Shown here in pieces: positions 15,465 through 30,641 of a stretch of 64,000 nt of DNA. The translations under genes and the position numbers were made by a program. The notes under the pieces were generated by a model that was not told the DNA's origin, did not search any database, and was given only the letters and a program-made list of their open reading frames with translations. Source of the stretch: Candidatus Saccharibacteria bacterium UBA1932 (GTDB lineage Bacteria; Patescibacteriota; Saccharimonadia; Saccharimonadales; Saccharimonadaceae); assembly GCA_002337095.1 (NCBI GenBank), contig DDFI01000001.1:57546-121545 (forward strand). Direction: 5' to 3'. The number at the start of each line of letters is the position of its first letter. The first letter of the stretch is position 1.

Positions 15465-17438
15465 ATGATTAGTATATATGATGCAACACGCCTCGCCCAG
15501 ACGAAGCTACAGATCAAGAAGGGCTCCTTATTCATATCAATTCTTATACCGTCTGTATTATTTTCAATCGTACTCGCATTAATCATGGTCGGCACAGGCC
15601 TCTCCGAGGCTGCCACCTCTTTTACTAGTTATGTCTATAGACAAGGATACCCTTTAAAGATTTCCCCCGTTATCTCTGACGAGAACCTTCTGACCTATAA
15701 GAAAATATCTCTGACGACTGCAGATGTGCAAAAAATTAAACAATTTGAAATTAGTTACAATAATGAGCAAAAAAAGCTATATGATAAAGCAGGTGTGCAG
15801 TACGCTGCGCCACTACCCGAGAATGGTCTGCTTTTGCCCGACATTACCGCCCCTGATACCGTTCCAGCAAATGAAAGATACTTCCTAAATATTAACTCCC
15901 CTATCTATGGTAAATTCGAGCAAAGTGAGCTGTCGAACTACCTGAGATCGGCACCAAATAAACTGAGCTCGCTCAAGTCGCTTGCTGGTCGTTATAATGG
16001 CAGCGGTTTTTACAAAAGTTACCCAATTAAAATCGGGCAAATACCTGATCAGCGATTAATACTCGATGACAAAGAAGACCTGCGAGACCCCCATGCTTCT
16101 CCAGCTCAAGATAATACTATGTACGGATTGTTTACTAGGGCAGTACGTAATAGCTCATATCAAGTTCAAAACGACCCCTCCTTTACAAAATACATTACAT
16201 ACACGGACCCACCTTCGGAGCTACAAGGTATACCAGTTATCATTTCCGCTCAAGAAGCCGCCATCTTATTTGGTCAGAAATATAGTATCTCGAGTACGCC
16301 GCCAGCAGATGCCGCAGCAAAGAAACAATGGCTCCAGAGCGCACAAAAGGCACTTACCGGCAGGACTTACCAAGCCTGTTATCGCAATACAGCAGAACGG
16401 TCCTTGGTTAGTAAAATACAGCAAGATACACTGAATAACCACCTACATGATAACGATGAATTATACCAGGCTCCCACCTTGCAATATCAGTTGCCCTCAT
16501 CGCCATGCGGTGATATCACTATCAAGTCTGATAATCGAACTACGGCTGAAAAACAACGAGGACTAATAGAAATCGCTAATGCAAAAAAATTAGGTGTTTA
16601 CACGGCACCCTATCACGCAAAAGTAACCTACCAGATTGTTGGGCTTATTGATGCAGAGGCCTCTAAAACCAACAATTTTATTGATTTAGCAAAAGGATTG
16701 CTAACCGACACAGTGCCCATAAGCACCGCTATCATTCCTGAGCACTTATTCAGTAAAATACCTGAGACCTTAAAGTCAGCTATTAATACAACTGGTGAGG
16801 TCTCTGATACTAATAACGCCCTCGCCGATGAAAATATATCAGATACGACTATATTTTTTCATAGCATACAAGATGCGAGGGCATTCTTAAAAAATGAGGC
16901 ATGCGAGATGTGGGTGAGCCCATGCAGTAGACTTTATAAAGCCGCACCCGTAGGTTCAAACTATCTGATAATTGAAGATGTTATTCGAATGTTTAATACA
17001 TTCATTATATGGGCGCCGATCGTAGCTATGCTCCTGGCGGCTGCCGTACTGGCCGTAACCATTACTAGGGTTATTATAGATAGTCGTAGGGAGACCGCCA
17101 TATATCGATCCATGGGTGCGCGTAAACACGACATAGTCTTGATATACAGTATCTACGCCATCCTCATATCACTTAGAGTTATTGTTGTATCACTAGCCAT
17201 TAGCTTGATTATGGCGATAACCGTGCAGATTAGTTATGGTCAATATCTCCAAGATATACTTAACTTCTATGCGAATCCTCAGGCTGGGGCAGGCTTACGC
17301 GTTAACTTGATTGCCCTATCTTCCCCTAATTTACTTTATGTAATTCTTATTATCATTTTAAGTTGTATCTCGGCGGCAATTATTCCAATATTTCGAAATG
17401 TTATGCGCTCTCCAATTGAGGATATGCGTAGTGAGTAA
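15465..17438 (+). CDS. FtsX/MacB-type ABC transporter permease with large extracytoplasmic domain
   Basis: One N-terminal TM helix, long soluble region, C-terminal TMs with SRRETAIYRSMGA and PIEDMRSE; adjacent to the ATPase. Confidence 0.88.
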   Translation: MISIYDATRLAQTKLQIKKGSLFISILIPSVLFSIVLALIMVGTGLSEAATSFTSYVYRQGYPLKISPVISDENLLTYKKISLTTADVQKIKQFEISYNNEQKKLYDKAGVQYAAPLPENGLLLPDITAPDTVPANERYFLNINSPIYGKFEQSELSNYLRSAPNKLSSLKSLAGRYNGSGFYKSYPIKIGQIPDQRLILDDKEDLRDPHASPAQDNTMYGLFTRAVRNSSYQVQNDPSFTKYITYTDPPSELQGIPVIISAQEAAILFGQKYSISSTPPADAAAKKQWLQSAQKALTGRTYQACYRNTAERSLVSKIQQDTLNNHLHDNDELYQAPTLQYQLPSSPCGDITIKSDNRTTAEKQRGLIEIANAKKLGVYTAPYHAKVTYQIVGLIDAEASKTNNFIDLAKGLLTDTVPISTAIIPEHLFSKIPETLKSAINTTGEVSDTNNALADENISDTTIFFHSIQDARAFLKNEACEMWVSPCSRLYKAAPVGSNYLIIEDVIRMFNTFIIWAPIVAMLLAAAVLAVTITRVIIDSRRETAIYRSMGARKHDIVLIYSIYAILISLRVIVVSLAISLIMAITVQISYGQYLQDILNFYANPQAGAGLRVNLIALSSPNLLYVILIIILSCISAAIIPIFRNVMRSPIEDMRSE

Positions 17439-17618
17439 TGTCTCGCCCCGGGTAGAGTAGCTGAGTCTCAGAGAATTATTTTTCGGACACAGCCCCATTA
17501 AACATATTATCTAGCTCAGGTGGGCTGGCCCGAGTCGTTAATCTCCGTGCATGTATTATTGCTAGTCTAGACCTGGTAGCAACTTATACTGTACTCAGGG
17601 CCGAATAGCAACTAATAA

Positions 17619-17646
17619 CGGGCCGCCTAGGCATTGGCGACCCGTT
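17619..17646 (-). terminator. Hairpin downstream of the YtxH-like gene
   Basis: ACGGG-CCGCCTAGGCATTGGCGA-CCCGT imperfect stem between convergent genes. Confidence 0.45.
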
Positions 17647-17667
17647 GTGTTAGAGCTTCATCCGTGG

Positions 17668-18024
17668 CTATTTTTTGGTGCCAGGAGTGGGCTTTTTGGC
17701 CTCTGACTGAGCAGCCTCGAAGGCACGCTCGGCGCGTGATCGATAGTCAGCAGCACGGCCTTTTACTTCTTCGCTTTTGTCGGTAGCCACGCGGCGAGCC
17801 TCGTCGTACTTTTCGCTCGCGACTTTGCGGGCTTCGTCATATTTTGCTTCGGCTTGCTTTTTTACTTCGGTAGCTTTTTTGGTGGCGTCTTTTTTGACGT
17901 CTTCGGCCTTAGCCTTCAGCTCAGCACGAGTTTCCTTGCCAGATTTTGGAGCGGTCAACATGCCAGCTACGATGCCGACTAGTGCGCCAAACACTGCACC
18001 TACTGCGAATTTACCTTTTGCCAT
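17668..18024 (-). CDS. YtxH-domain protein
   Basis: FAVGAVFGALVGIVAGMLTAPKSGKETR motif followed by Lys/Ala-rich helix. Confidence 0.9.
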   Translation of the reverse strand: MAKGKFAVGAVFGALVGIVAGMLTAPKSGKETRAELKAKAEDVKKDATKKATEVKKQAEAKYDEARKVASEKYDEARRVATDKSEEVKGRAADYRSRAERAFEAAQSEAKKPTPGTKK

Positions 18025-18030
18025 AGTTGG

Positions 18031-18276
18031 TTATCCTTTCTTCTTAAATTTTTTGACCTGAGAAATAATGAGCTTTGCCAGCAATGCCGGCGATGTGACC
18101 TTGGTCACGTTGGCCACCACGTTTTCGATATTCAGCGCGGCACGTTCTGCGGTCGTAGTGATGTTTTTGATCTGACGCGTCACTTTGATAAGTAGCACGA
18201 CCAGAACCACTGCGAGTAGCAGGAACAGCGCGAGAAACACCGATAGGATGATGACGAGGATGTGGGCCCAATCCAT
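18031..18276 (-). CDS. DUF948/YoxC-like membrane protein
   Basis: Long TM helix followed by amphipathic helix, upstream of ytxH; AGGAG before ATG 18276. Confidence 0.7.
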   Translation of the reverse strand: MDWAHILVIILSVFLALFLLLAVVLVVLLIKVTRQIKNITTTAERAALNIENVVANVTKVTSPALLAKLIISQVKKFKKKG

Positions 18277-18360
18277 GAGCTCTCCTTTTCCTGTTAGGTT
18301 GATACTGTTACTAGTATACACGCCTTTTGCGGCGATGAGCTGTGAAAAACTTCACGAAGA

Positions 18361-19248
18361 TCAAAACTTGCCGCGTAAATGATCGCGTAGGGCCGGCCCT
18401 AATCGCGGGTGATCGAGGCCAAAATCGATAACAGTCTTGAGATATTCGAGCTTATCGCCCGTATCATAGAATTTGCCACCGGTGATTTCGCGAGCATAGA
18501 CACCGTAGCCATCGTCGATCATTTGCTGCATGATTGGCTGCAGCATTAGCTCGCCACCACCATCATGCGTCGAGCTAGCGCGATCGATATAGTCGAATAC
18601 TTCAGGCGTGAGCAAATAGCCGCTGACACTGGCGAGGTCGCTAGGCGCGTTAGCTTTGCCGGGTTTTTCGACAAATTTTGCGACCTTGAGCGTTGATGCA
18701 TCGGCCTCGGCGCCGGCCACCACCCCATAGCGGTCGTACTCGTCGTCGCTAAGCATTTTCTTGCAAGCCAGTACCGAGCCATTAAATTTGGTATACGTCT
18801 CGATCAGCTGCTTGGTGCGTCCGGGTTTTGCCACAAAAAAGTCGTCGGCAAATGTATAAATAAACGGCTCATTGCCAATCAAATGCGCTGCACATTGCAC
18901 CGGCGTGGCGTTGCCATAGGGACCTTTTTGGCGCAGATAGATAAAATTCGCCATGTTTGCGATGTCTTCGATTTGCTGGAGTAATGGCCTCTTCTTGTCC
19001 CCGCCAGCGCGAAGATTATTCAGCAGATCCTCATTCGGCAGATCAAAATGATCTTCAATCGCACGCTTATTACTGCTACCGACAATAATAATATCGCTGA
19101 TACCGGCGTCTACCAGCTCTTCCACAACATATTGGATAATCGGCTTGTCGATCAGCGGCATCATTTCCTTGGGCATGGCCTTGGTCTGCGGCAAAAACCG
19201 CGTGCCGAAACCTGCGGCTGCAATAATCGCTTTAGTTGGTCGTTGCAT
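18361..19248 (-). CDS. galU: UTP-glucose-1-phosphate uridylyltransferase
   Basis: KAIIAAAGFGTRFLPQTKAMPKEM, KRAIEDHFD, RQKGPYG, VEKP, YDTGDK. Confidence 0.93.
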   Translation of the reverse strand: MQRPTKAIIAAAGFGTRFLPQTKAMPKEMMPLIDKPIIQYVVEELVDAGISDIIIVGSSNKRAIEDHFDLPNEDLLNNLRAGGDKKRPLLQQIEDIANMANFIYLRQKGPYGNATPVQCAAHLIGNEPFIYTFADDFFVAKPGRTKQLIETYTKFNGSVLACKKMLSDDEYDRYGVVAGAEADASTLKVAKFVEKPGKANAPSDLASVSGYLLTPEVFDYIDRASSTHDGGGELMLQPIMQQMIDDGYGVYAREITGGKFYDTGDKLEYLKTVIDFGLDHPRLGPALRDHLRGKF

Positions 19249-19258
19249 GTTCCCCCTT

Positions 19259-20713
19259 TTATTTCTGTTGGTCTAATCGTTCGCGGATGAGTGTTTGCGC
19301 AAGGCCCGGGTTAGCTTTGCCCTGGGATTGTTTCATGACTTGGCCGACGAGATAGCCGATGGCTTTGTCTTTGCCGGCCGTGATATCAGCGATGCTGGTG
19401 GCACTGGCGGGATCGGTCATCACCGCATCGACAATCGCCGCAATCGCGCCCTCGTCGCTCACTTGCAGCAGGTTCTTTTCTTCGGCGATTTTCTTTGCAT
19501 CTTCTCTGCTAGTCGTAATCATTTCAAAGAATATCGTCTCTGCGCTATTCGAACTTACCTGATTGGCGTCGACCATTTGCGACAGTTGCACCAGGCCATT
19601 GGTAATGTCAGCGCCGGCATGGTAGCCACGCGTTTCATCGCCAACACATTTCATCAGCCAAAAGCTGGTTTTGCGCGCGGCCGCGATATCGATGTCAATG
19701 AGCCGATTGACGAGCTGCGCGGCGTCAGGAGAATCAAGTAGCGTGTTTACCACTGATTTATCAAGGTGTAGCCCAGCCCACTTGGCGCGGTACTCTGGCG
19801 GCAGCATCGGCACTTCGGCCTGCACGCTCGCAATCTGCTCGGGCGTCAGGACCACTGGCGGAATGTCGGCGTCGGGCATGTAGCGGTAGTCCTGGGCGTC
19901 TTCTTTGCTGCGCTGGCTGGTTGTGATCTGCTTGGCATCGTTCCAGCCGCGAGTTTCTTGCACCACGCGCTCGCCTCGCTCCAGCAATTCCACCTGGCGG
20001 CGGAACTCGTATTCGACTGCGCGTTCGATACTACGAAAACTATTGAGGTTTTTGATTTCGGCGCGCGTGCCCAACGTGTTGCTATCCGCCGGCGCCACCG
20101 AAATATTAACATCAAATCGCTGGTTGCCATGGTATAGGTCGCCGCGCGACACACCGGCGTACATCATCAGGCGGTGCAGCTCTTGGCAAAATGCCTTGGC
20201 TTCGGCGCTGCTGTGCATGTCTGGCTCGGTGACGATTTCGATCAGCGGCGTGCCAGCGCGATTGTAGTCGGCCAGCGTATAATCACCATAGTGAGTTAGC
20301 TTGCCGGCATCAGATTCTAGATGCGCGTGATGAATACGAACCCGCACTACGCCGCCATCCTCGAGTGGCGCTTCGACTACACCGGCCAGAATGGTTGGCT
20401 CGTACATCTGGGTGATTTGGTAGCCATTTGGCAAATCAGGATAGAAATAATGCTTGCGATCGAAACGGCTGACATGCGCCACATCGGCATTGAGCGCTTT
20501 TGCTGCCCGAATCGCCAGGTTGATCGCCTCGCGGTTGAGGATCGGCAGCATGCCCGGCAAACCATAATCGATGAGGTGCACTTTGCTATTTGGCGATGCG
20601 TCGCGGGCGTCATTGTCGGCCGGGCTAAATAATTTGGTAGCAGTAGCCAGCTGCACGTGGCTTTCGATGCCAATAGTCATGCGGTACTTGGCCAGGGTTT
20701 CGGGCGTGATCAT
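19259..20713 (-). CDS. gatB: Asp/Glu-tRNA amidotransferase subunit B
   Basis: IGIESHVQL, FDRKHYFYPDLP, NRAGTPLIEIVTEP, DYRYMPD, GYLVGQVMK. Confidence 0.98.
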   Translation of the reverse strand: MITPETLAKYRMTIGIESHVQLATATKLFSPADNDARDASPNSKVHLIDYGLPGMLPILNREAINLAIRAAKALNADVAHVSRFDRKHYFYPDLPNGYQITQMYEPTILAGVVEAPLEDGGVVRVRIHHAHLESDAGKLTHYGDYTLADYNRAGTPLIEIVTEPDMHSSAEAKAFCQELHRLMMYAGVSRGDLYHGNQRFDVNISVAPADSNTLGTRAEIKNLNSFRSIERAVEYEFRRQVELLERGERVVQETRGWNDAKQITTSQRSKEDAQDYRYMPDADIPPVVLTPEQIASVQAEVPMLPPEYRAKWAGLHLDKSVVNTLLDSPDAAQLVNRLIDIDIAAARKTSFWLMKCVGDETRGYHAGADITNGLVQLSQMVDANQVSSNSAETIFFEMITTSREDAKKIAEEKNLLQVSDEGAIAAIVDAVMTDPASATSIADITAGKDKAIGYLVGQVMKQSQGKANPGLAQTLIRERLDQQK

Positions 20714-21132
20714 CAGATTGCCCCCAGGTCTTTAAGCGCACGCTTGAATGCGATCAGCGCACGCTTGGCCTCGTCGTAACTAACAGCCACGTTCGTCTCG
20801 TGCGCCAAACGATTGCGCAATTTGTGTGCCTCCCACAGTTCATTGGCGTTAGACCATGTATCGCGGGCCGATTTCAGCCTATCACCCATAGTTTCGCCCT
20901 GATAGCGGCTGTCGCGCAGGGCGCGGTCAACCAGCTTGTCGGCGTTAAGCACTGCCAAAATGTGGCTGCTCGGCTCGTCGCGCGAAAGGTTATTTTCGAT
21001 CTTGAGCCAATCCGCCTGATAACGAGCTTGGTCTACATGCCGCGGCGCGTGCTTGGTAAAAGCCATGATAGTCAAGAACAGCGCGCCCACAATCACAATC
21101 GCCACCAAGAAAATCACCGATGTCATATCCAT
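20713..21132 (-). CDS. Hypothetical membrane-anchored protein within the gat operon
   Basis: N-terminal TM helix; stop overlaps the gatB start. Confidence 0.8.
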   Translation of the reverse strand: MDMTSVIFLVAIVIVGALFLTIMAFTKHAPRHVDQARYQADWLKIENNLSRDEPSSHILAVLNADKLVDRALRDSRYQGETMGDRLKSARDTWSNANELWEAHKLRNRLAHETNVAVSYDEAKRALIAFKRALKDLGAI

Positions 21133-21134
21133 AA

Positions 21135-22535
21135 TTATACCTCCTCCATCTGATGCGCCAGCGACATAAGCAGGGCATCGGCGCGGTAGGCACCAATGAG
21201 TTGCACGCCGATCGGCAGGCCATCGGGCGTCGTGCCAGCCGGTACGCTGAGTGCTGGGAGGCCGGCCAGGCTTGGCGGCACGGTCATCACGTCGGCCAGA
21301 TACATCTTGACCGGATCGCTGGTGTTCTCGCCAATGCCAAATGCGGGCGTAGGCGCCGTTGGCGACAGCAGCACGTCGTACGTCTCGAATAGTTTGCGAT
21401 AGGCATCAATCAGCAACGTGCGAGCTTTTTGGGCTTGCTGGTAATAGGCGTCAAAATAGCCACTTGACAGCACGTAACTACCGATCATAATGCGGCGTTT
21501 GTTTTCGGTTACAAAGCCTTGGTCGCGGCTGCGGCCGTATAGTTCAGCCAGTGTCGAGGCGCTAGCGCGGCGGCCATACCGCACGCCGTCGTAGCGCGCC
21601 AGGTTGCTGCTAATCTCGGCCGGTACGATGATATAGTACATGGCGAGGGCGGACTTCATGATAGGCAGGTTGACGGTGTCGACCGTGTGGCCAGCGGCGC
21701 GCAGGCGCTCGACAAATTGATCGGTGGCATGACGCACACTATCGTCGACGCCCGTGTCGATGGTTTCGGCGATAACGCCGATCTTTAGCGGCCGAACGTT
21801 GGCAGGCAGCGGCGCAAAAAAGTCTGGCAATGTGGTGCCATCCCGCGGATCCTGGCCCGCCATGACATCCATCACCAGCTCGACATCTTCGATCGTGCGC
21901 GCGAAACAGCCGATGGTGTCGGTGCTTGATGCCATCGCCACCACGCCGTAGCGGCTGACCGTGCCGTAGCTTGGCTTAATACCGTACACGCCGTTAAAGC
22001 TCGCCGGCTGGCGAATTGATCCACCTGTATCGCTTCCCAGTGCAAACGGCACGACATCGAGCGCCGTCACGACCGCCGAGCCACCACTGCTGCCACCAGC
22101 TACGCGCGATTGGTCGACGGCGTTATGCGTGACACCATAGGCCGAATTCTCGGTGCTGCCACCATGGGCAAAGGCATCGAGGTTCGACTTGCCGATGCAG
22201 ATTGCGCCCTCGGCTTCGAGTTTTTCGACAGCAGTTGCCTGCAGTGGCGCGTGGAAGTTTTCGAGGATCTTGCTCGCGGCAGTCGTGGGGGCACCAAACG
22301 CCAAAAAATTATCCTTCACCACAAACGGCACGCCGGCCAATCGGCCAACATCTTTGCCGGCCGCCACTCGCGCATCAATATCGTCAGCACGCTTTAGGGC
22401 GCGCTCGTCGGTCAGCGCCAGTAGTGCATGATACTCCGAGATGCTACGGGCCTGCGCCAGTGCGTGCTCAACCAACGCCCGTGCCGTGGTGGTGCCGGCG
22501 GTTACATCGTTGACTAGCTGCGAAATGGTGGCCAT
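21135..22535 (-). CDS. gatA: Asp/Glu-tRNA amidotransferase subunit A
   Basis: Amidase signature GGSSGGSA...GSDTGGSIRQPA; SSNLARYDGVRYG. Confidence 0.98.
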   Translation of the reverse strand: MATISQLVNDVTAGTTTARALVEHALAQARSISEYHALLALTDERALKRADDIDARVAAGKDVGRLAGVPFVVKDNFLAFGAPTTAASKILENFHAPLQATAVEKLEAEGAICIGKSNLDAFAHGGSTENSAYGVTHNAVDQSRVAGGSSGGSAVVTALDVVPFALGSDTGGSIRQPASFNGVYGIKPSYGTVSRYGVVAMASSTDTIGCFARTIEDVELVMDVMAGQDPRDGTTLPDFFAPLPANVRPLKIGVIAETIDTGVDDSVRHATDQFVERLRAAGHTVDTVNLPIMKSALAMYYIIVPAEISSNLARYDGVRYGRRASASTLAELYGRSRDQGFVTENKRRIMIGSYVLSSGYFDAYYQQAQKARTLLIDAYRKLFETYDVLLSPTAPTPAFGIGENTSDPVKMYLADVMTVPPSLAGLPALSVPAGTTPDGLPIGVQLIGAYRADALLMSLAHQMEEV

Positions 22536-22537
22536 CG

Positions 22538-22828
22538 CTATAATACCTTTGGTACTTCTACTTGATTGTCACGCGATGTAGGCGCCAACGCCAGCAGGGC
22601 TTCGCGATCGGCGGTATCGTGCTGGATGGTGTCGTCGCGCATGACATTTTGCAGGCCCGTCACCTGATAGGTCGGCGCCACGCCCTCGGTATCGAGCGCG
22701 CCCAGCTCCCCAATATAGGCCAAGATATTGCCCAGATCCACGCGCAGATCCTCGACCTCCTGATCATCCAGGCTCAAACTACTCAGCTGCGCGAGATGCC
22801 GCACATCATCACTAGAAATATCGCTCAT
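22538..22828 (-). CDS. gatC: Asp/Glu-tRNA amidotransferase subunit C
   Basis: ISSDDVRHLAQLSSL...EVPKVL; position upstream of gatA. Confidence 0.95.
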   Translation of the reverse strand: MSDISSDDVRHLAQLSSLSLDDQEVEDLRVDLGNILAYIGELGALDTEGVAPTYQVTGLQNVMRDDTIQHDTADREALLALAPTSRDNQVEVPKVL

Positions 22829-23029
22829 TACTTCTATTATACCTCACTTGTGATGTGAGTAAAGCCGTTGCCACCATGGAGGCGAGGACTTTTGGCACGG
22901 CCCCAGGCATATAGCGTGACTCTGAATTTTCGTGATTTGTAATATAGCGATGTCCATTCCCAGGTTTTGGATAGATCAGTAGCTTGTATGGCGAAGCAGG
23001 TACCTGTGGGGTCTTTGGTGATGAGGCTG

Positions 23030-23341
23030 TTAAAACTGCATACTGCCCAGCGCTAGAAAAACTATAGACTGAGCAATAATGATGCCATTTATTACTCCAG
23101 CTAGTATCCCTGCAATACGCCACCCTTCTCGCGCATAACGAAAAGTTATCCATGCATTACAAAGAAAGACGATTACGCTCACGAGAATAACCTGTCTCGC
23201 AAGACTATTAACAGCCATTCGTTCCATACTGCTACTATATGCTCTGGAAACAATACCTAAAATGGCTGCAACAACCCACGCGGTGAGTATGGATAGCTTT
23301 GCGAAGATACTTACTTCTTTTTCATCATATTTATTACTCAC
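23030..23341 (-). CDS. Small membrane protein (3 predicted TM), candidate immunity/accessory gene 2
   Basis: Hydrophobic 103 aa; GTG start lies inside the duplicated 62-bp repeat. Confidence 0.75.
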   Translation of the reverse strand: MSNKYDEKEVSIFAKLSILTAWVVAAILGIVSRAYSSSMERMAVNSLARQVILVSVIVFLCNAWITFRYAREGWRIAGILAGVINGIIIAQSIVFLALGSMQF

Positions 23342-23397
23342 AATTCACCCCCCTCCGGTAATGTATTTAGTTTTATGAATCCAACCGGCATATAGAA
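23336..23397. repeat. Direct repeat copy A (62 bp) of the SGNH-gene 3' end
   Basis: ACTCACAATTCA-C6-TCCGGTAATGTATTTAGTTTTATGAATCCAACCGGCATATAGAA. Confidence 0.95.
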
Positions 23398-23462
23398 ACG
23401 CGTAGGAGGCTGGGCCTGTGGTATGATTCATTCAAGCCTAGTCAGCTAAACCTAGTTTAAGA

Positions 23463-23750
23463 TTACCACGCCGCCATACCTGATGAAAGCGCGATACAAA
23501 ACCATGTATAGGCACCCAGGATAAGCGACAAAGCGATAGTTACTACAGCCATACCGCCAATTGAATCTTTATAACGCACCAGACAGAATATGCCATAAAG
23601 TATAGCAAGAACAGGTATAGCCCCTACAATGTGCTTCATTTGCCGTACGAACACGGCGTGCGCCTCCGATGCAATGAGCATATTAATCAAGACTATAATG
23701 TCGACGCCCACAAGACCAACTTTATTTGCGCTCAATTTATTTTCACTCAC
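23463..23750 (-). CDS. Small membrane protein (3 predicted TM), candidate immunity/accessory gene 1
   Basis: Hydrophobic 95 aa; GTG start overlaps the end of the upstream hydrolase gene. Confidence 0.75.
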   Translation of the reverse strand: MSENKLSANKVGLVGVDIIVLINMLIASEAHAVFVRQMKHIVGAIPVLAILYGIFCLVRYKDSIGGMAVVTIALSLILGAYTWFCIALSSGMAAW

Positions 23751-26694
23751 AATTCACCCCCTCCGGTAATGTATTTAGTTTTATGAATCCAACCGGCATA
23801 TAGAAGCGGCGGTAAAGACTGAGCGTGTACATCGACTCCGAATATGGGAGCGGAATCATGGCAGAGCACACATTATTAGCTTTTGACAGGATGGTAGGAA
23901 TAGATTGGTTGGTATACATATGCATTACTACGCTATTGTACGTAGACTTGGTGTTTGCGGTCAAGCTTTTGGCAATGAGTAGTTGGCCGTCTGCATTGAC
24001 GTATTTGCGCATGCGGTCAGTCAACTGTTCATTAGGCGCGAGAATGTGATACAGATAGATACTTTTGGGGTCTTCGCCTTTGGCAACGATGCCGTTACGC
24101 GCGACGTAGGGAATGCCTGGTTTTGGTGGGACGGGCGGAGTAACGGGAGGCGTGGGCGGATCGGTAATTTGTGGATCACAAGCATCGTCGATGCCATCTT
24201 GATCGATATCTTTGCTGGATGGCGTGATGAATGGACCACATTTTTGAGACTTGTCGGGTACGCCATTGGCGTCGAGGTCGTTTGGATCTGAGCCCGTGAC
24301 GAGGATAGTTTGGGTATAGGTAATGGGTTCGCCCGAGTAGGTCTTCGCTGTAACAATCAGGGTATGGTAACCCACAGGCACGGTTTCAGGAATATTGATG
24401 GTGACGTTGGCCGACCCATCTGCACTTGGCTTAAACGTCCCTAGGTCGACCGGGTCGGAATGCAGAGATACTATGAATTCTGTGACAGGATTGACCATAT
24501 ATTCAGGTAGGCTAATAGTGAGTTTTTGGCCGCGATAGGCCTGGCCCGTAGTCAGCTCGACACTTTGCGACGGATCACTCCCCGCAAATTCTTTGGGCCT
24601 AGGTGGATTTTGTGCTCCCGTTCCAGTCTCAGGACAGACATATACGTTTGCGTCAGGGCATACTTGGTAGTCCGCCAGACTCTTGCCGTCTAACTTTTCT
24701 TTAATTGCTTCGGCAATCTTCTGCTGTCCCTTAGCATTGGGGTGATAGCTTTCTTGCACTTCGCTACTCCCCCACGCTGCGATGCCGGTAACATATGGTC
24801 CTTTGTTTTCGCATATCCTTCCACCCGATAGGGAGTGCTCAGTTTCGATATAATGCACGCCGGCAGCTTTTGCGGCAGATTCGATAACACTATTGAGATA
24901 CGTGGTTGCCTGAACAATCATAGTCAGCTCTTCGGCATTAAGCGATCCAGTATTTGACCCACAATCACCATATGGATAATCATTAACCAGCTGCGGATAG
25001 CCTAATACATATATTTTTGTTTGGCCGCCAGACGCGTCAATAAGATCTTTATATAGCTGTAGCAGGGTTGTATATTGTTGTTCTATCTCGCTGCCCAGCT
25101 TCGTTTTATTGTCTGTCGCCCAGCTACATGAGAGCAAACTCTTTAAGCAGTCGGTCAACTTATCTCCAAAATGAAGATCATTAGCCCCGGCAGTCAGCGT
25201 AATCACCTTCGGTTTGTATTTCTTCACGAATTCTATCTGCTCAACACGCCCAGGTATCATCGCGTTCAGTGCGACCGTCTGCAGCGTATCTTTGAATGTG
25301 TATCCAGCTAGTCGGTTATCTTGGCCCTGGTATGTGTAAAGATTGGCAAGGTTCGCGATATCATCAGTTTTTGCCCCGCTGCACGCTACCGAATCCCATT
25401 GACCTTTGGGCCCTTGTGTGAGGTTCATCCAGCTGGCAAGCAGGTATGGGTACGAGCGAGTGCTCTGGTGGCATTTTTCTCGCGGTTGGTTGGCGGCTTT
25501 GTTTTCTTCTTCGTCTGTGAATAGACGGTAGTATTTCTTATCGGTTGCAGAGTTTTTCTCGGTATCCCCCTCCCCGCTCGAAATTGAATCGCCGAGGGCG
25601 AGGTAGTCGAGCTGCTTGGGCTCGACGTAGTCGGCGCGTTTGATACGAATCGCCACATCTGTCCCCACGCCATTATTACTACCATCACGAAAGAACACGT
25701 TCAGCATGGCACTTGTCTCGTCATCACTAAATGCGGCAGGGATATTATCATCAAGAAAACGATACTGCGTATTGTACGTATCGGCAGCTCGCTGCACTAA
25801 TGTATCACTGGCTTGTACGGGGCAAAGTGAACTCTCCTGAGATGCCGGCAACTGATTCATTTGTATCGGTGACTGGCCACAGCTGCCGTCAATTGTATAA
25901 AAGCGCGTATTGATATAGCTGGGATTATTGCGTGCATCGCCCCGCGCGATCACAACCGACTTGCCGGTATTAGAGACTGCAGGTGACGCGCTCATACCAG
26001 GGGACCACATCGTTGCCGTCTCGAAACGTCGCGCCTGCATAGTGTCTAGATTGACAACCGCCGCGCCAGCATTACGAATATTTGTTACAAACCATTTGCC
26101 ATTAGCCGAAAAGCTGCCGTGGTCTAGATCGGACGGAGTATTAGTAGTGGGGTTCGTTAGCACATCTTGGCAGCCCTTGTAATCGTAGCTGTAGGTAGAA
26201 CCCGTAAGCGAAGTCGTACGTGTTAAATGACTGGCAAAATCCTTAACAATACACATGCTCGCGCCATAATACCCCATCGGATACGATTTCGCGATGATAT
26301 CCGAGTTTGGCACCATGCTATATGTGCCGCCATTAAGGCTATTAATCATATAGAACTGGCTGTCCGCACCAAATGATATCATATACTCCGTGCCATAGCT
26401 GTAGTTATCTGGATGAAAATATCCAAAACGCATAGCGTTGTGGCTCCAGTAGCACCCTGATTGCAGCTTTACGTACGTCGACACACGGACCATCTGCTGC
26501 GTACATTTGCTAACATCCGCAATACTCGACCGCGCTACCTCGGCCGTCAGCGCCCTATTTGCCCACGTCACCTCTGCGGCGCGTGCGGTGGTAAGCTGCA
26601 CAAGCGGCGGCAGGATAGCAAGTATGAGCGCGAGTAAACCCAGTACCGGCGTGGCTGACGTTAGTATATACTTGCGACGCAATTGTAGGCTCAT
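23743..26694 (-). CDS. Large secreted SGNH/GDSL hydrolase (lipase/esterase) multidomain protein
   Basis: Signal peptide (…TTARA-AE); blocks ALGDSISSG, VACSGA, ITLTAGANDL, YHPNAKG; Ca-binding TSP3-like DLDANGVPD / DIDQDGIDDACD; Pro-rich linker; GGAG before ATG 26694. Confidence 0.88.
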   Translation of the reverse strand: MSLQLRRKYILTSATPVLGLLALILAILPPLVQLTTARAAEVTWANRALTAEVARSSIADVSKCTQQMVRVSTYVKLQSGCYWSHNAMRFGYFHPDNYSYGTEYMISFGADSQFYMINSLNGGTYSMVPNSDIIAKSYPMGYYGASMCIVKDFASHLTRTTSLTGSTYSYDYKGCQDVLTNPTTNTPSDLDHGSFSANGKWFVTNIRNAGAAVVNLDTMQARRFETATMWSPGMSASPAVSNTGKSVVIARGDARNNPSYINTRFYTIDGSCGQSPIQMNQLPASQESSLCPVQASDTLVQRAADTYNTQYRFLDDNIPAAFSDDETSAMLNVFFRDGSNNGVGTDVAIRIKRADYVEPKQLDYLALGDSISSGEGDTEKNSATDKKYYRLFTDEEENKAANQPREKCHQSTRSYPYLLASWMNLTQGPKGQWDSVACSGAKTDDIANLANLYTYQGQDNRLAGYTFKDTLQTVALNAMIPGRVEQIEFVKKYKPKVITLTAGANDLHFGDKLTDCLKSLLSCSWATDNKTKLGSEIEQQYTTLLQLYKDLIDASGGQTKIYVLGYPQLVNDYPYGDCGSNTGSLNAEELTMIVQATTYLNSVIESAAKAAGVHYIETEHSLSGGRICENKGPYVTGIAAWGSSEVQESYHPNAKGQQKIAEAIKEKLDGKSLADYQVCPDANVYVCPETGTGAQNPPRPKEFAGSDPSQSVELTTGQAYRGQKLTISLPEYMVNPVTEFIVSLHSDPVDLGTFKPSADGSANVTINIPETVPVGYHTLIVTAKTYSGEPITYTQTILVTGSDPNDLDANGVPDKSQKCGPFITPSSKDIDQDGIDDACDPQITDPPTPPVTPPVPPKPGIPYVARNGIVAKGEDPKSIYLYHILAPNEQLTDRMRKYVNADGQLLIAKSLTANTKSTYNSVVMHMYTNQSIPTILSKANNVCSAMIPLPYSESMYTLSLYRRFYMPVGFIKLNTLPEGVNCE
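23745..23805. repeat. Direct repeat copy B (61 bp), in-frame 3' end of the SGNH gene
   Basis: Identical to copy A except C5 instead of C6. Confidence 0.95.
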
Positions 26695-26811
26695 AGCTAT
26701 CTCCCTAGTGCTTTCCCCTAGCATACCAGTATTTCATAAGCAAATAAATACTCGTGGTTATTTATACTACAACATTTGGGCAAAATACCACTTACGCTTA
26801 TAATAGAAGTA

Positions 26812-28632: not shown

Positions 28633-30609
<1,977 letters not shown>

Positions 30610-30641
30610 CCTATTAGTATACGGCGTTACGGCCAATAATC

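Follow-up and report, generated by a model that had tools for sequence, protein, structure and literature searches.

Why does the last stretch of a large hydrolase gene occur a second time shortly downstream, each time in front of a different small membrane protein gene? The question is raised by a locus on the minus strand of a 64,000-nucleotide (nt) stretch of the Candidatus Saccharibacteria bacterium UBA1932 genome (GCA_002337095.1, contig DDFI01000001.1, positions 57,546 to 121,545), referred to as the window and used for all coordinates below, where an SGNH/GDSL hydrolase gene is followed by the small genes 1 and 2. The explanation which accounts best for the locus as a whole, and which we consider probable, is that the downstream copy is a scar of cassette addition at the end of the hydrolase gene and that the small proteins are protective partners of the enzyme. 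The scar and the addition of cassettes are highly probable; the protective, immunity-like role, to which sequence comparison points, is a serious candidate that we rate a little short of an even chance.

That the end of the hydrolase gene is duplicated ahead of two small genes had been proposed in an initial annotation of the sequence, and the repeat search, the count of an exact 48-mer and blastn all bear it out. A direct repeat of about 72 nt was found, aligned in two segments, 23349-23400 against 23757-23808 (52 nt, 98%) and the adjoining 23331-23352 against 23740-23761 (22 nt, 91%). Its exact 48-nt core is present twice (23349-23396 and 23757-23804) and had no match in 100 shuffles; the chance expectation for such a repeat is none. 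In blastn the hydrolase gene from -65 to +8 relative to its stop aligned with the copy 343 nt downstream (93.3% over 75 columns). Copy 1, the hydrolase end itself, translates as FYMPVGFIKLNTLPEGVNCE followed by the stop (tail of the protein, FYMPVGFIKLNTLPEG), and also holds the first codons of gene 1, M-S-E-N-K, with an 8-nt overlap between the GTG of that gene and the hydrolase stop. Copy 2 translates as FYMPVGFIKLNTLPEGGEL followed by a stop, with an extra G and the ending ...LPEGGEL. The copies differ by five against six G on the coding strand (C-runs 23737-23741 and 23348-23353), which is indeed the only difference within the 61/62 bp first recognised; over the full repeat there are in addition a single C/T at the 5' edge and a 3-nt GAA indel directly after GTGAGT. 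Being frameshifted by its six G, copy 2 is untranslatable as a hydrolase tail and is therefore a dead stub of the gene end, in which GGAGG, the spacing and the GTG ahead of gene 2 are retained. Upstream of the repeat the two copies share no similarity above that of shuffled sequence (30 nt, p = 0.10; 40-60 nt, p = 0.99), so that the 5' junction is sharp; a trace of older, decayed homology there, which would have hinted at gene conversion, did not reach significance. At the other end the homology stops where the two small genes start to diverge. The spacer between the cassettes, which may be donor DNA that arrived together with gene 1, showed no promoter-like or terminator-like site.

Table 1. 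Features of the hydrolase locus and distribution of differences in a second strain (window coordinates).
Feature	Position	Strand	Description
SGNH/GDSL hydrolase, 993 aa	23743..26724	-	Pfam, PDB profiles, fold match, homologue alignment
Repeat copy 1	23737..23808	-	Last ~21 hydrolase codons; Shine-Dalgarno GGAGGGGG from P-E-G codons; gene 1 GTG start
Small gene 1, 95 aa	23463..23750	-	GTG start; three hydrophobic helices, basic N-terminus; overlaps hydrolase stop
Spacer, 62 nt, gene 1 stop to stub	23401..23462	-	No similarity to sequence upstream of copy 1
Repeat copy 2	23329..23400	-	Orphan frameshifted (G6) 65-nt hydrolase stub; Shine-Dalgarno and GTG start for gene 2
Small gene 2, 103 aa	23030..23341	-	GTG start; three helices
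Lower-GC island	22850..26750		42-53% GC against 55-62% in flanks; hydrolase and both cassettes; between gatC and alpha-amylase-family gene
Second-strain differences	17000-22946		240 (3.8%)
Second-strain differences	22947-25652		0
Second-strain differences	25653-26582		10
Second-strain differences	26582 to ~29000		None
Second-strain differences	29000-30610		68

The reading of copy 2 as a scar is carried by related Saccharibacteria, in which 67 loci with an intact hydrolase and sufficient downstream sequence were compared. A small multi-helix membrane gene lies directly downstream of 20 of the 21 hydrolases ending in ...LP.G..CE (CE tail), overlapping the stop in 19; it is found after 7/34 hydrolases with their own C-terminal membrane helix and basic tail, 1/4 with a hydrophobic or amphipathic C-terminal end and 0/8 with other C-termini, and is thus near-universal solely with CE-tail enzymes. 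The arrays comprise one to six small membrane genes per locus, and these sort into over 20 sequence families. By blastn, downstream stubs of the hydrolase 3' end were detected in 17 of the 21 CE-tail loci, one to three in each, measuring 40-309 nt with 71-100% identity (99-100% in L022 and L013) and typically reaching the start of a small gene. Replacement at the junction is seen in the pairs L006/L008, L018/L023 and L017/L018, where the last 600 nt of the hydrolase genes are 91-95.5% identical and identity is about 50% right past the stop. The displacement of a cassette can be followed across genomes: the hydrolase of L023 is coupled to the cassette F4, and its last 60-124 nt, F4 and the next gene are colinear (89-92%) with a stub, F4 and the next gene in L018, L016, L015 and L007, where one to four other cassettes stand between hydrolase and F4 stub. 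Cassettes have therefore been added beside the hydrolase and older ones pushed off, keeping a piece of the old gene end. The stubs, the junction replacement and the displacement of F4 together uphold the initial proposal that recombination has built an expandable array of cassettes at the 3' end of the hydrolase gene.

Three kinds of C-terminus occur in the SGNH hydrolases of Saccharibacteria (loci L003-L082), namely the CE beta-domain tail, a hydrophobic helix with a basic tail, and an amphipathic helix. In the closest relative, L085 (6093-6857), the same overlapping junction is occupied by a single-pass membrane protein of 254 amino acids that has Cys in its ectodomain, matches no family and begins MSSNKL... 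where gene 1 begins MSENKL...; in L090 (6367-8108) single-pass ectodomain proteins (118, 200 and 94 amino acids) are accompanied by a three-helix cassette behind an "...ECE" stub.

For the window, the following history would account for these features. Incoming DNA carrying a hydrolase 3' part and a different small membrane gene, gene 1, would have recombined into the locus, with the upstream crossover in homology within the conserved hydrolase gene and an illegitimate junction at the downstream end, about 65 nt ahead of the resident stop, so that copy 2 would represent the last ~65 nt of the earlier hydrolase 3' end. Natural competence and the recombination of incoming DNA, both documented in Saccharibacteria (PMC10633639), make a process of this type, homology-facilitated illegitimate recombination, plausible. 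Gene 1 would be the newest cassette and gene 2 the former partner, an older resident displaced downstream, which would keep its ribosome site and GTG because both lie within the last codons of the hydrolase. Repeated rounds would yield arrays growing at their hydrolase-proximal end.

The repeat itself is real. Short-read assemblies can collapse or duplicate repeats, but the array including the G5 and G6 runs is identical base for base in three independent assemblies (the window, an ENA contig of 85.8 kb and a JGI contig). In Logan contigs and unitigs (k=31), from which all depth data were taken, the graph gave in at least four runs the order left flank, 49-nt repeat node, 419-nt middle segment and right flank, and the repeat node had about twice the depth of its flanks in four public runs (92 vs 51, 63 vs 36, 25.6 vs 14-16 and 20 vs 10-12). 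As far as contigs can show, the repeat is not an assembly artefact, an explanation that hardly deserves further consideration. The locus was found in public runs of 2013-2023 from wastewater, bioreactor and activated sludge. The identical array is carried by a second strain (runs X8, X12, X13 and X15), whose sequence forms a mosaic when compared with that of the window (Table 1). The tract with zero differences between the strains encloses the 3' half of the hydrolase and both cassettes, which suggests a recent recombinational exchange between them. An exact scan for the 48-mer in contigs of GTDB-representative genomes, among which the source genome is not included, gave no match, and neither did scans of metagenome contigs with a 31-mer and with the protein.

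A programmed switch, with G-run slippage or loss of the segment between the repeats determining the choice of the coupled small gene or the strength of its translation, is very improbable. The exact 48-nt repeat is long enough for RecA-type recombination, and the middle segment stood at 0.78-0.82 of flank depth in two runs (X12 and X3), but the ratio was 0.97-1.04 in the three other covered runs (X1, X8 and X13). The whole range is within noise; no deletion variant was seen, though k=31 contigs cannot reveal a repeat-mediated deletion, because the repeat is longer than k and the deletion adds no new 31-mers. The suggestion of the initial annotation that the G-run could tune translation is not supported: no variation in its length was present in any assembly or contig set, and runs of five to six G are short for phase variation. 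Its other suggestion, that recombination between the repeats would delete gene 1 and couple gene 2 to the hydrolase, needs a correction, as most crossovers would also alter the hydrolase end. A crossover within the 43 nt upstream of the G-run would bring the extra G into the hydrolase gene, whose product would then end in ...EGGEL in place of ...EGVNCE and lose a near-invariant Cys (Cys992). Such a deletion would moreover be irreversible.

The large protein is an SGNH/GDSL hydrolase by profile matches above cut-off and by the presence of the four catalytic blocks, with Ser380, Gly450, Asn515 and His661 invariant in 19 homologues. Pfam matches were PF13472 (E 5e-13, 50.4 bits, cut-off 32.9) and PF00657 (E 1.1e-10, 42.4 bits, cut-off 23.6), and among PDB profiles two Streptomyces enzymes, the phospholipase A1 4HYQ (1.8e-23) and the lipase 5MAL (9.4e-21). 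Foldseek gave TM-scores of 0.72 and 0.75, with fold matches to 4HYQ, 5MAL and the esterase 1ESC. The N-terminus is a hydrophobic leader of Sec type followed by ARA-AE, and the protein is predicted to be a Sec-exported, phospholipase- or lipase-like enzyme. The AlphaFold model (AF2; confidence score, pLDDT, 68) shows the leader helix, a beta-propeller (61-362), the SGNH domain (374-680), a beta-sandwich (719-810), Ca-loop repeats and a C-terminal beta domain (873-983) ending in ...LPEGVNCE, the last beta-strand of which (980-983) sits within the duplicated tail. The 19 homologues, with an overall identity of just 33-47%, have the motif Y.PRGF.KL..LP.G..CE of this tail in common, and its P-x-G codons also provide the Shine-Dalgarno site for the gene that follows. 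In other genomes the most similar hydrolases reach about 40-47% identity. The order uvrB, amylase-family gene and SGNH hydrolase recurs in L087, a related wastewater contig whose hydrolase is only 40% identical; this contig stops 146 nt past the hydrolase stop, as though broken by a repeat.

Each copy of the repeat starts a different protein of about 100 amino acids with three membrane helices, as the initial annotation had it; the two products do not align with each other. Both have a short basic N-terminus, three hydrophobic helices (4-34, 38-70 and 75-101 in a single-sequence structure model of the gene 2 protein) and an R-Y-rich loop ahead of helix 3. Gene 1 is probably coupled translationally to the hydrolase, judging from the overlap of stop and start. 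Its product had no relatives among 5.8 billion proteins and only a weak match to L026_1 (hhalign 60%, blastp E 0.007). Searches with the gene 2 protein returned only itself, both from the same 5.8 billion proteins and from 1.84 billion representatives scanned in full with HMMER; a 1219 amino acid protein, P0099, matches its residues 26-83 in five separate stretches (E 3.7e-5) and is probably a repetitive membrane protein matching by composition. Scans against Pfam, NCBIfam and PADLOC returned nothing or sub-threshold noise (LiaF-TM, Erv26, CSP membrane domain). Between cassette proteins hhalign gave no probability above 69%; their architecture is shown to be shared, homology is not, and a single superfamily for all of them was rejected on this basis. 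Contigs from RNA libraries map to gene 2 (23114-23295) in four runs and to part of the hydrolase in one, and none to gene 1 was seen in any RNA library, at low depth; these sparse contigs show no more than that gene 2 is transcribed. The same insert of about 62 nt within gene 2 (23231-23295), flanked by adapters, occurs in two metatranscriptome runs (X27 and X28) and could be a chance effect of low depth or a stable fragment.

A link between enzyme and cassette emerges from thirteen loci of the oral clade, a small set that is not phylogenetically independent. The hydrolases of this clade are mosaics: all of them share 70-100% identity in the first half of the SGNH domain, and the second half together with the beta-sandwich falls into five types with sharp boundaries, 30-69% identical between and at least 81% within types (polymorphic segment in the L005-L023 alignment, columns 650-950, corresponding to residues ~589-880 of L016). 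Type A is followed by first cassette F1 (6 loci), type B by F3a (3 loci), type C by F4 (2 loci), type D by F12 (1 locus) and type E by F3b (1 locus), the type thus matching the first cassette family in 13/13 loci. The N-terminal half and the C-terminal tail group differently from the variable region: L005 and L009 have L016-like N-terminal parts and yet type A with F1, and in L009 the last ~140 residues are L016-like, with the variable region before them and the cassette after them both L006-like. Such a pattern is to be expected if the small protein is fitted to the enzyme variant, as in toxin/immunity pairs. The small proteins would then be partners matched to enzyme variants, most likely shielding the membrane of the producer itself; the first cassette would be made in step with the enzyme through translational coupling, and displaced cassettes would be retained as protection from the enzyme variants of neighbours.

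The same array history could be combined with another role, in which the small proteins are docks, anchors or activity regulators that hold the secreted hydrolase at the producer surface, via its C-terminal domain or variable region, and stand in for the C-terminal membrane anchor present in other family members. CE-tail hydrolases have no membrane anchor of their own and are almost always followed by a small gene (20/21), which is seldom found after homologues with helix and basic tail (7/34) or after other classes (1/12), and the association between anchor class and small gene is strong (Fisher p = 1e-9, for loci that are not phylogenetically independent). Translational coupling suits a stoichiometric partner, and the ectodomain protein of L085 occupies the same junction. 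However, an anchor for a conserved tail should itself be conserved, and the small proteins have no detectable relatives or belong to more than 20 families; there are several of them per locus, they are swapped between near-identical tails, and the retention of displaced copies makes little sense for an anchor. We regard docking as rather unlikely. Still less probable is a neutral scar, in which one insertion or duplication left the stub and the small open reading frames are accessory membrane genes hitch-hiking at a recombination-prone spot with no functional link to the enzyme. The lack of relatives of both small proteins, the position of the locus in a low-GC island and the absence of variation within the species would fit this. 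It does not explain why the stop/start overlap with the ribosome site in hydrolase codons is kept across hydrolases only 33-47% identical, why the cassettes have a common architecture (basic N-terminus, three helices, basic loop before helix 3), and why the cassette family tracks the variable region of the enzyme.

Several points also weigh against the explanation preferred here, that of cassette addition with protective partners. The function of enzyme and cassettes is deduced from sequence comparison, and the distribution of small genes over anchor classes, with 7/34 after helix-tailed enzymes, fits docking about as well as protection. Known lipase immunity proteins are soluble or lipid-anchored binders and not three-helix membrane proteins. 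The co-variation of variable type and cassette can also reflect block transfer of linked DNA, a linkage broken by L009 alone. For the genome of the window, the direction of the event is taken from the oral clade, because no near relative of it was available (next best 47% identity). The comparison of strains and relatives called for by the initial annotation gave a divided answer, since relatives vary in their number of cassettes and, in the window's own species, the array is identical in both strain backgrounds and in every sample. The RNA evidence is sparse and among the cassettes covers gene 2 only.

In organisation the locus resembles the contact-dependent growth inhibition (CDI) module CdiA-CT/CdiI, Rhs-CT/RhsI and the Neisseria MafB/MafI system. 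In these, too, the gene of a large exported protein is followed at once by a small partner gene, orphan partners lie downstream, each behind a fragment of the 3' region of the large gene, and recombination within conserved sequence brings in new modules, which displace the older ones; in the window the partner gene is directly downstream with its 8-nt overlap, and an orphan partner stands behind the 65-nt stub. The co-variation of a variable enzyme segment with the first partner is seen in the oral relatives. Unlike in CDI, Rhs and Maf loci, the extreme C-terminus is conserved here and the variable part, as seen in the relatives, is internal (second half of SGNH and beta-sandwich), the stub of the window comprises 21 codons without a toxin domain, the partners are integral membrane proteins, and a Sec-type leader is present with no two-partner, type VI (T6SS) or type VII secretion system (T7SS) apparatus; the present system is moreover known from its sequence alone.

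The T6SS Tle/Tli pairs and the TslA/TilA pair of the Staphylococcus aureus T7SS have in common with the locus a lipid-attacking enzyme, which here is a prediction, and adjacent, often multiple partner genes. The Tle classes are however alpha/beta-hydrolases and the present enzyme has the SGNH fold, and Tli and TilA are periplasmic proteins or lipoproteins, whereas the partners here are three-helix membrane proteins without family match. Membership of the T6SS Tle and T7SS toxin systems, which the initial annotation had cited as known cases, did not hold up: the domain scan of the hydrolase found GDSL only, with a Sec-type leader and no LXG, PAAR or Rhs domains, and the neighbouring genes are gatCAB, an amylase-family gene and uvrB. 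The immunity proteins of pore-forming colicins and some bacteriocins are like the small proteins in size (about 100 amino acids), in their three to four membrane spans, in adjacency to the toxin and in high diversity, but they neutralise pore-forming domains inside the membrane, whereas the neighbour here is a soluble esterase-type enzyme; no sequence or profile similarity to them was found. The closest solved relatives of the catalytic domain, by profile and fold, are the Streptomyces SGNH lipase 5MAL and phospholipase A1 4HYQ, with the esterase 1ESC. These are secreted single-domain enzymes of about 235 amino acids, in contrast to the multidomain protein of 993 amino acids described here (propeller, beta-sandwich, Ca-loops and C-terminal domain), and we know of no partner gene for them.

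Three further candidates were rejected. An integron or other site-specific cassette array would not fit, as no recombinase open reading frame lies between 18 and 29 kb of the window, no inverted repeats flank the cassettes, and the repeat is hydrolase coding sequence and not an imperfect inverted repeat of attC type. Nor is this a holin-endolysin pair, given that the small proteins end a few residues past helix 3 with no charged tail and that the hydrolase comes with a leader of its own. Fusion of the hydrolase to the small protein by a frameshift, giving a sortase-like signal of LP.G and membrane helix, was discarded because G4 and G6 each give early stops.

Patescibacteria cannot make lipids, and the route by which lipids are supplied from their hosts is an open question. 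In our literature search no paper connected Saccharibacteria with lipase immunity, with SGNH/GDSL hydrolases in the present sense or with their own polymorphic toxins, and none described this type of locus. According to a recent perspective no mechanism of lipid uptake or breakdown has been identified in Patescibacteria, and phospholipases have only been proposed as envelope-damaging factors (PMC11665869). We tentatively propose that Saccharibacteria may have a polymorphic surface enzyme, phospholipase-like and exported by Sec, in which the conserved last ~20 codons act at once as recombination arm and as built-in ribosome site, and whose cassettes might act as variant-specific protectors, the displaced ones being a record of past or neighbouring enzyme types; we hold this general picture to be less likely than not. 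If it is true, any small membrane protein cassette landing at the hydrolase end would be expressed in step with the enzyme, and the locus would represent, as far as the literature was searched, the first effector/immunity or kin-discrimination system in Patescibacteria, built on a plan that CDI, Rhs, T6SS and T7SS loci do not show and linking competition between epibionts to the harvesting of host lipids. The window extends the pattern from oral lineages to a lineage of activated sludge, in its simplest form of two cassettes. Arrays of orphan modules, a hallmark of polymorphic toxins, can form around a Sec-exported enzyme with a conserved C-terminus, and natural transformation together with a conserved gene end appears to be all that they require. 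With its large, conserved and exported enzyme of phospholipase-like type beside fast-turning partner genes, the locus offers a testable handle on self-protection and competition in these epibionts, and with a few Saccharibacteria now genetically manipulable such a test is feasible.

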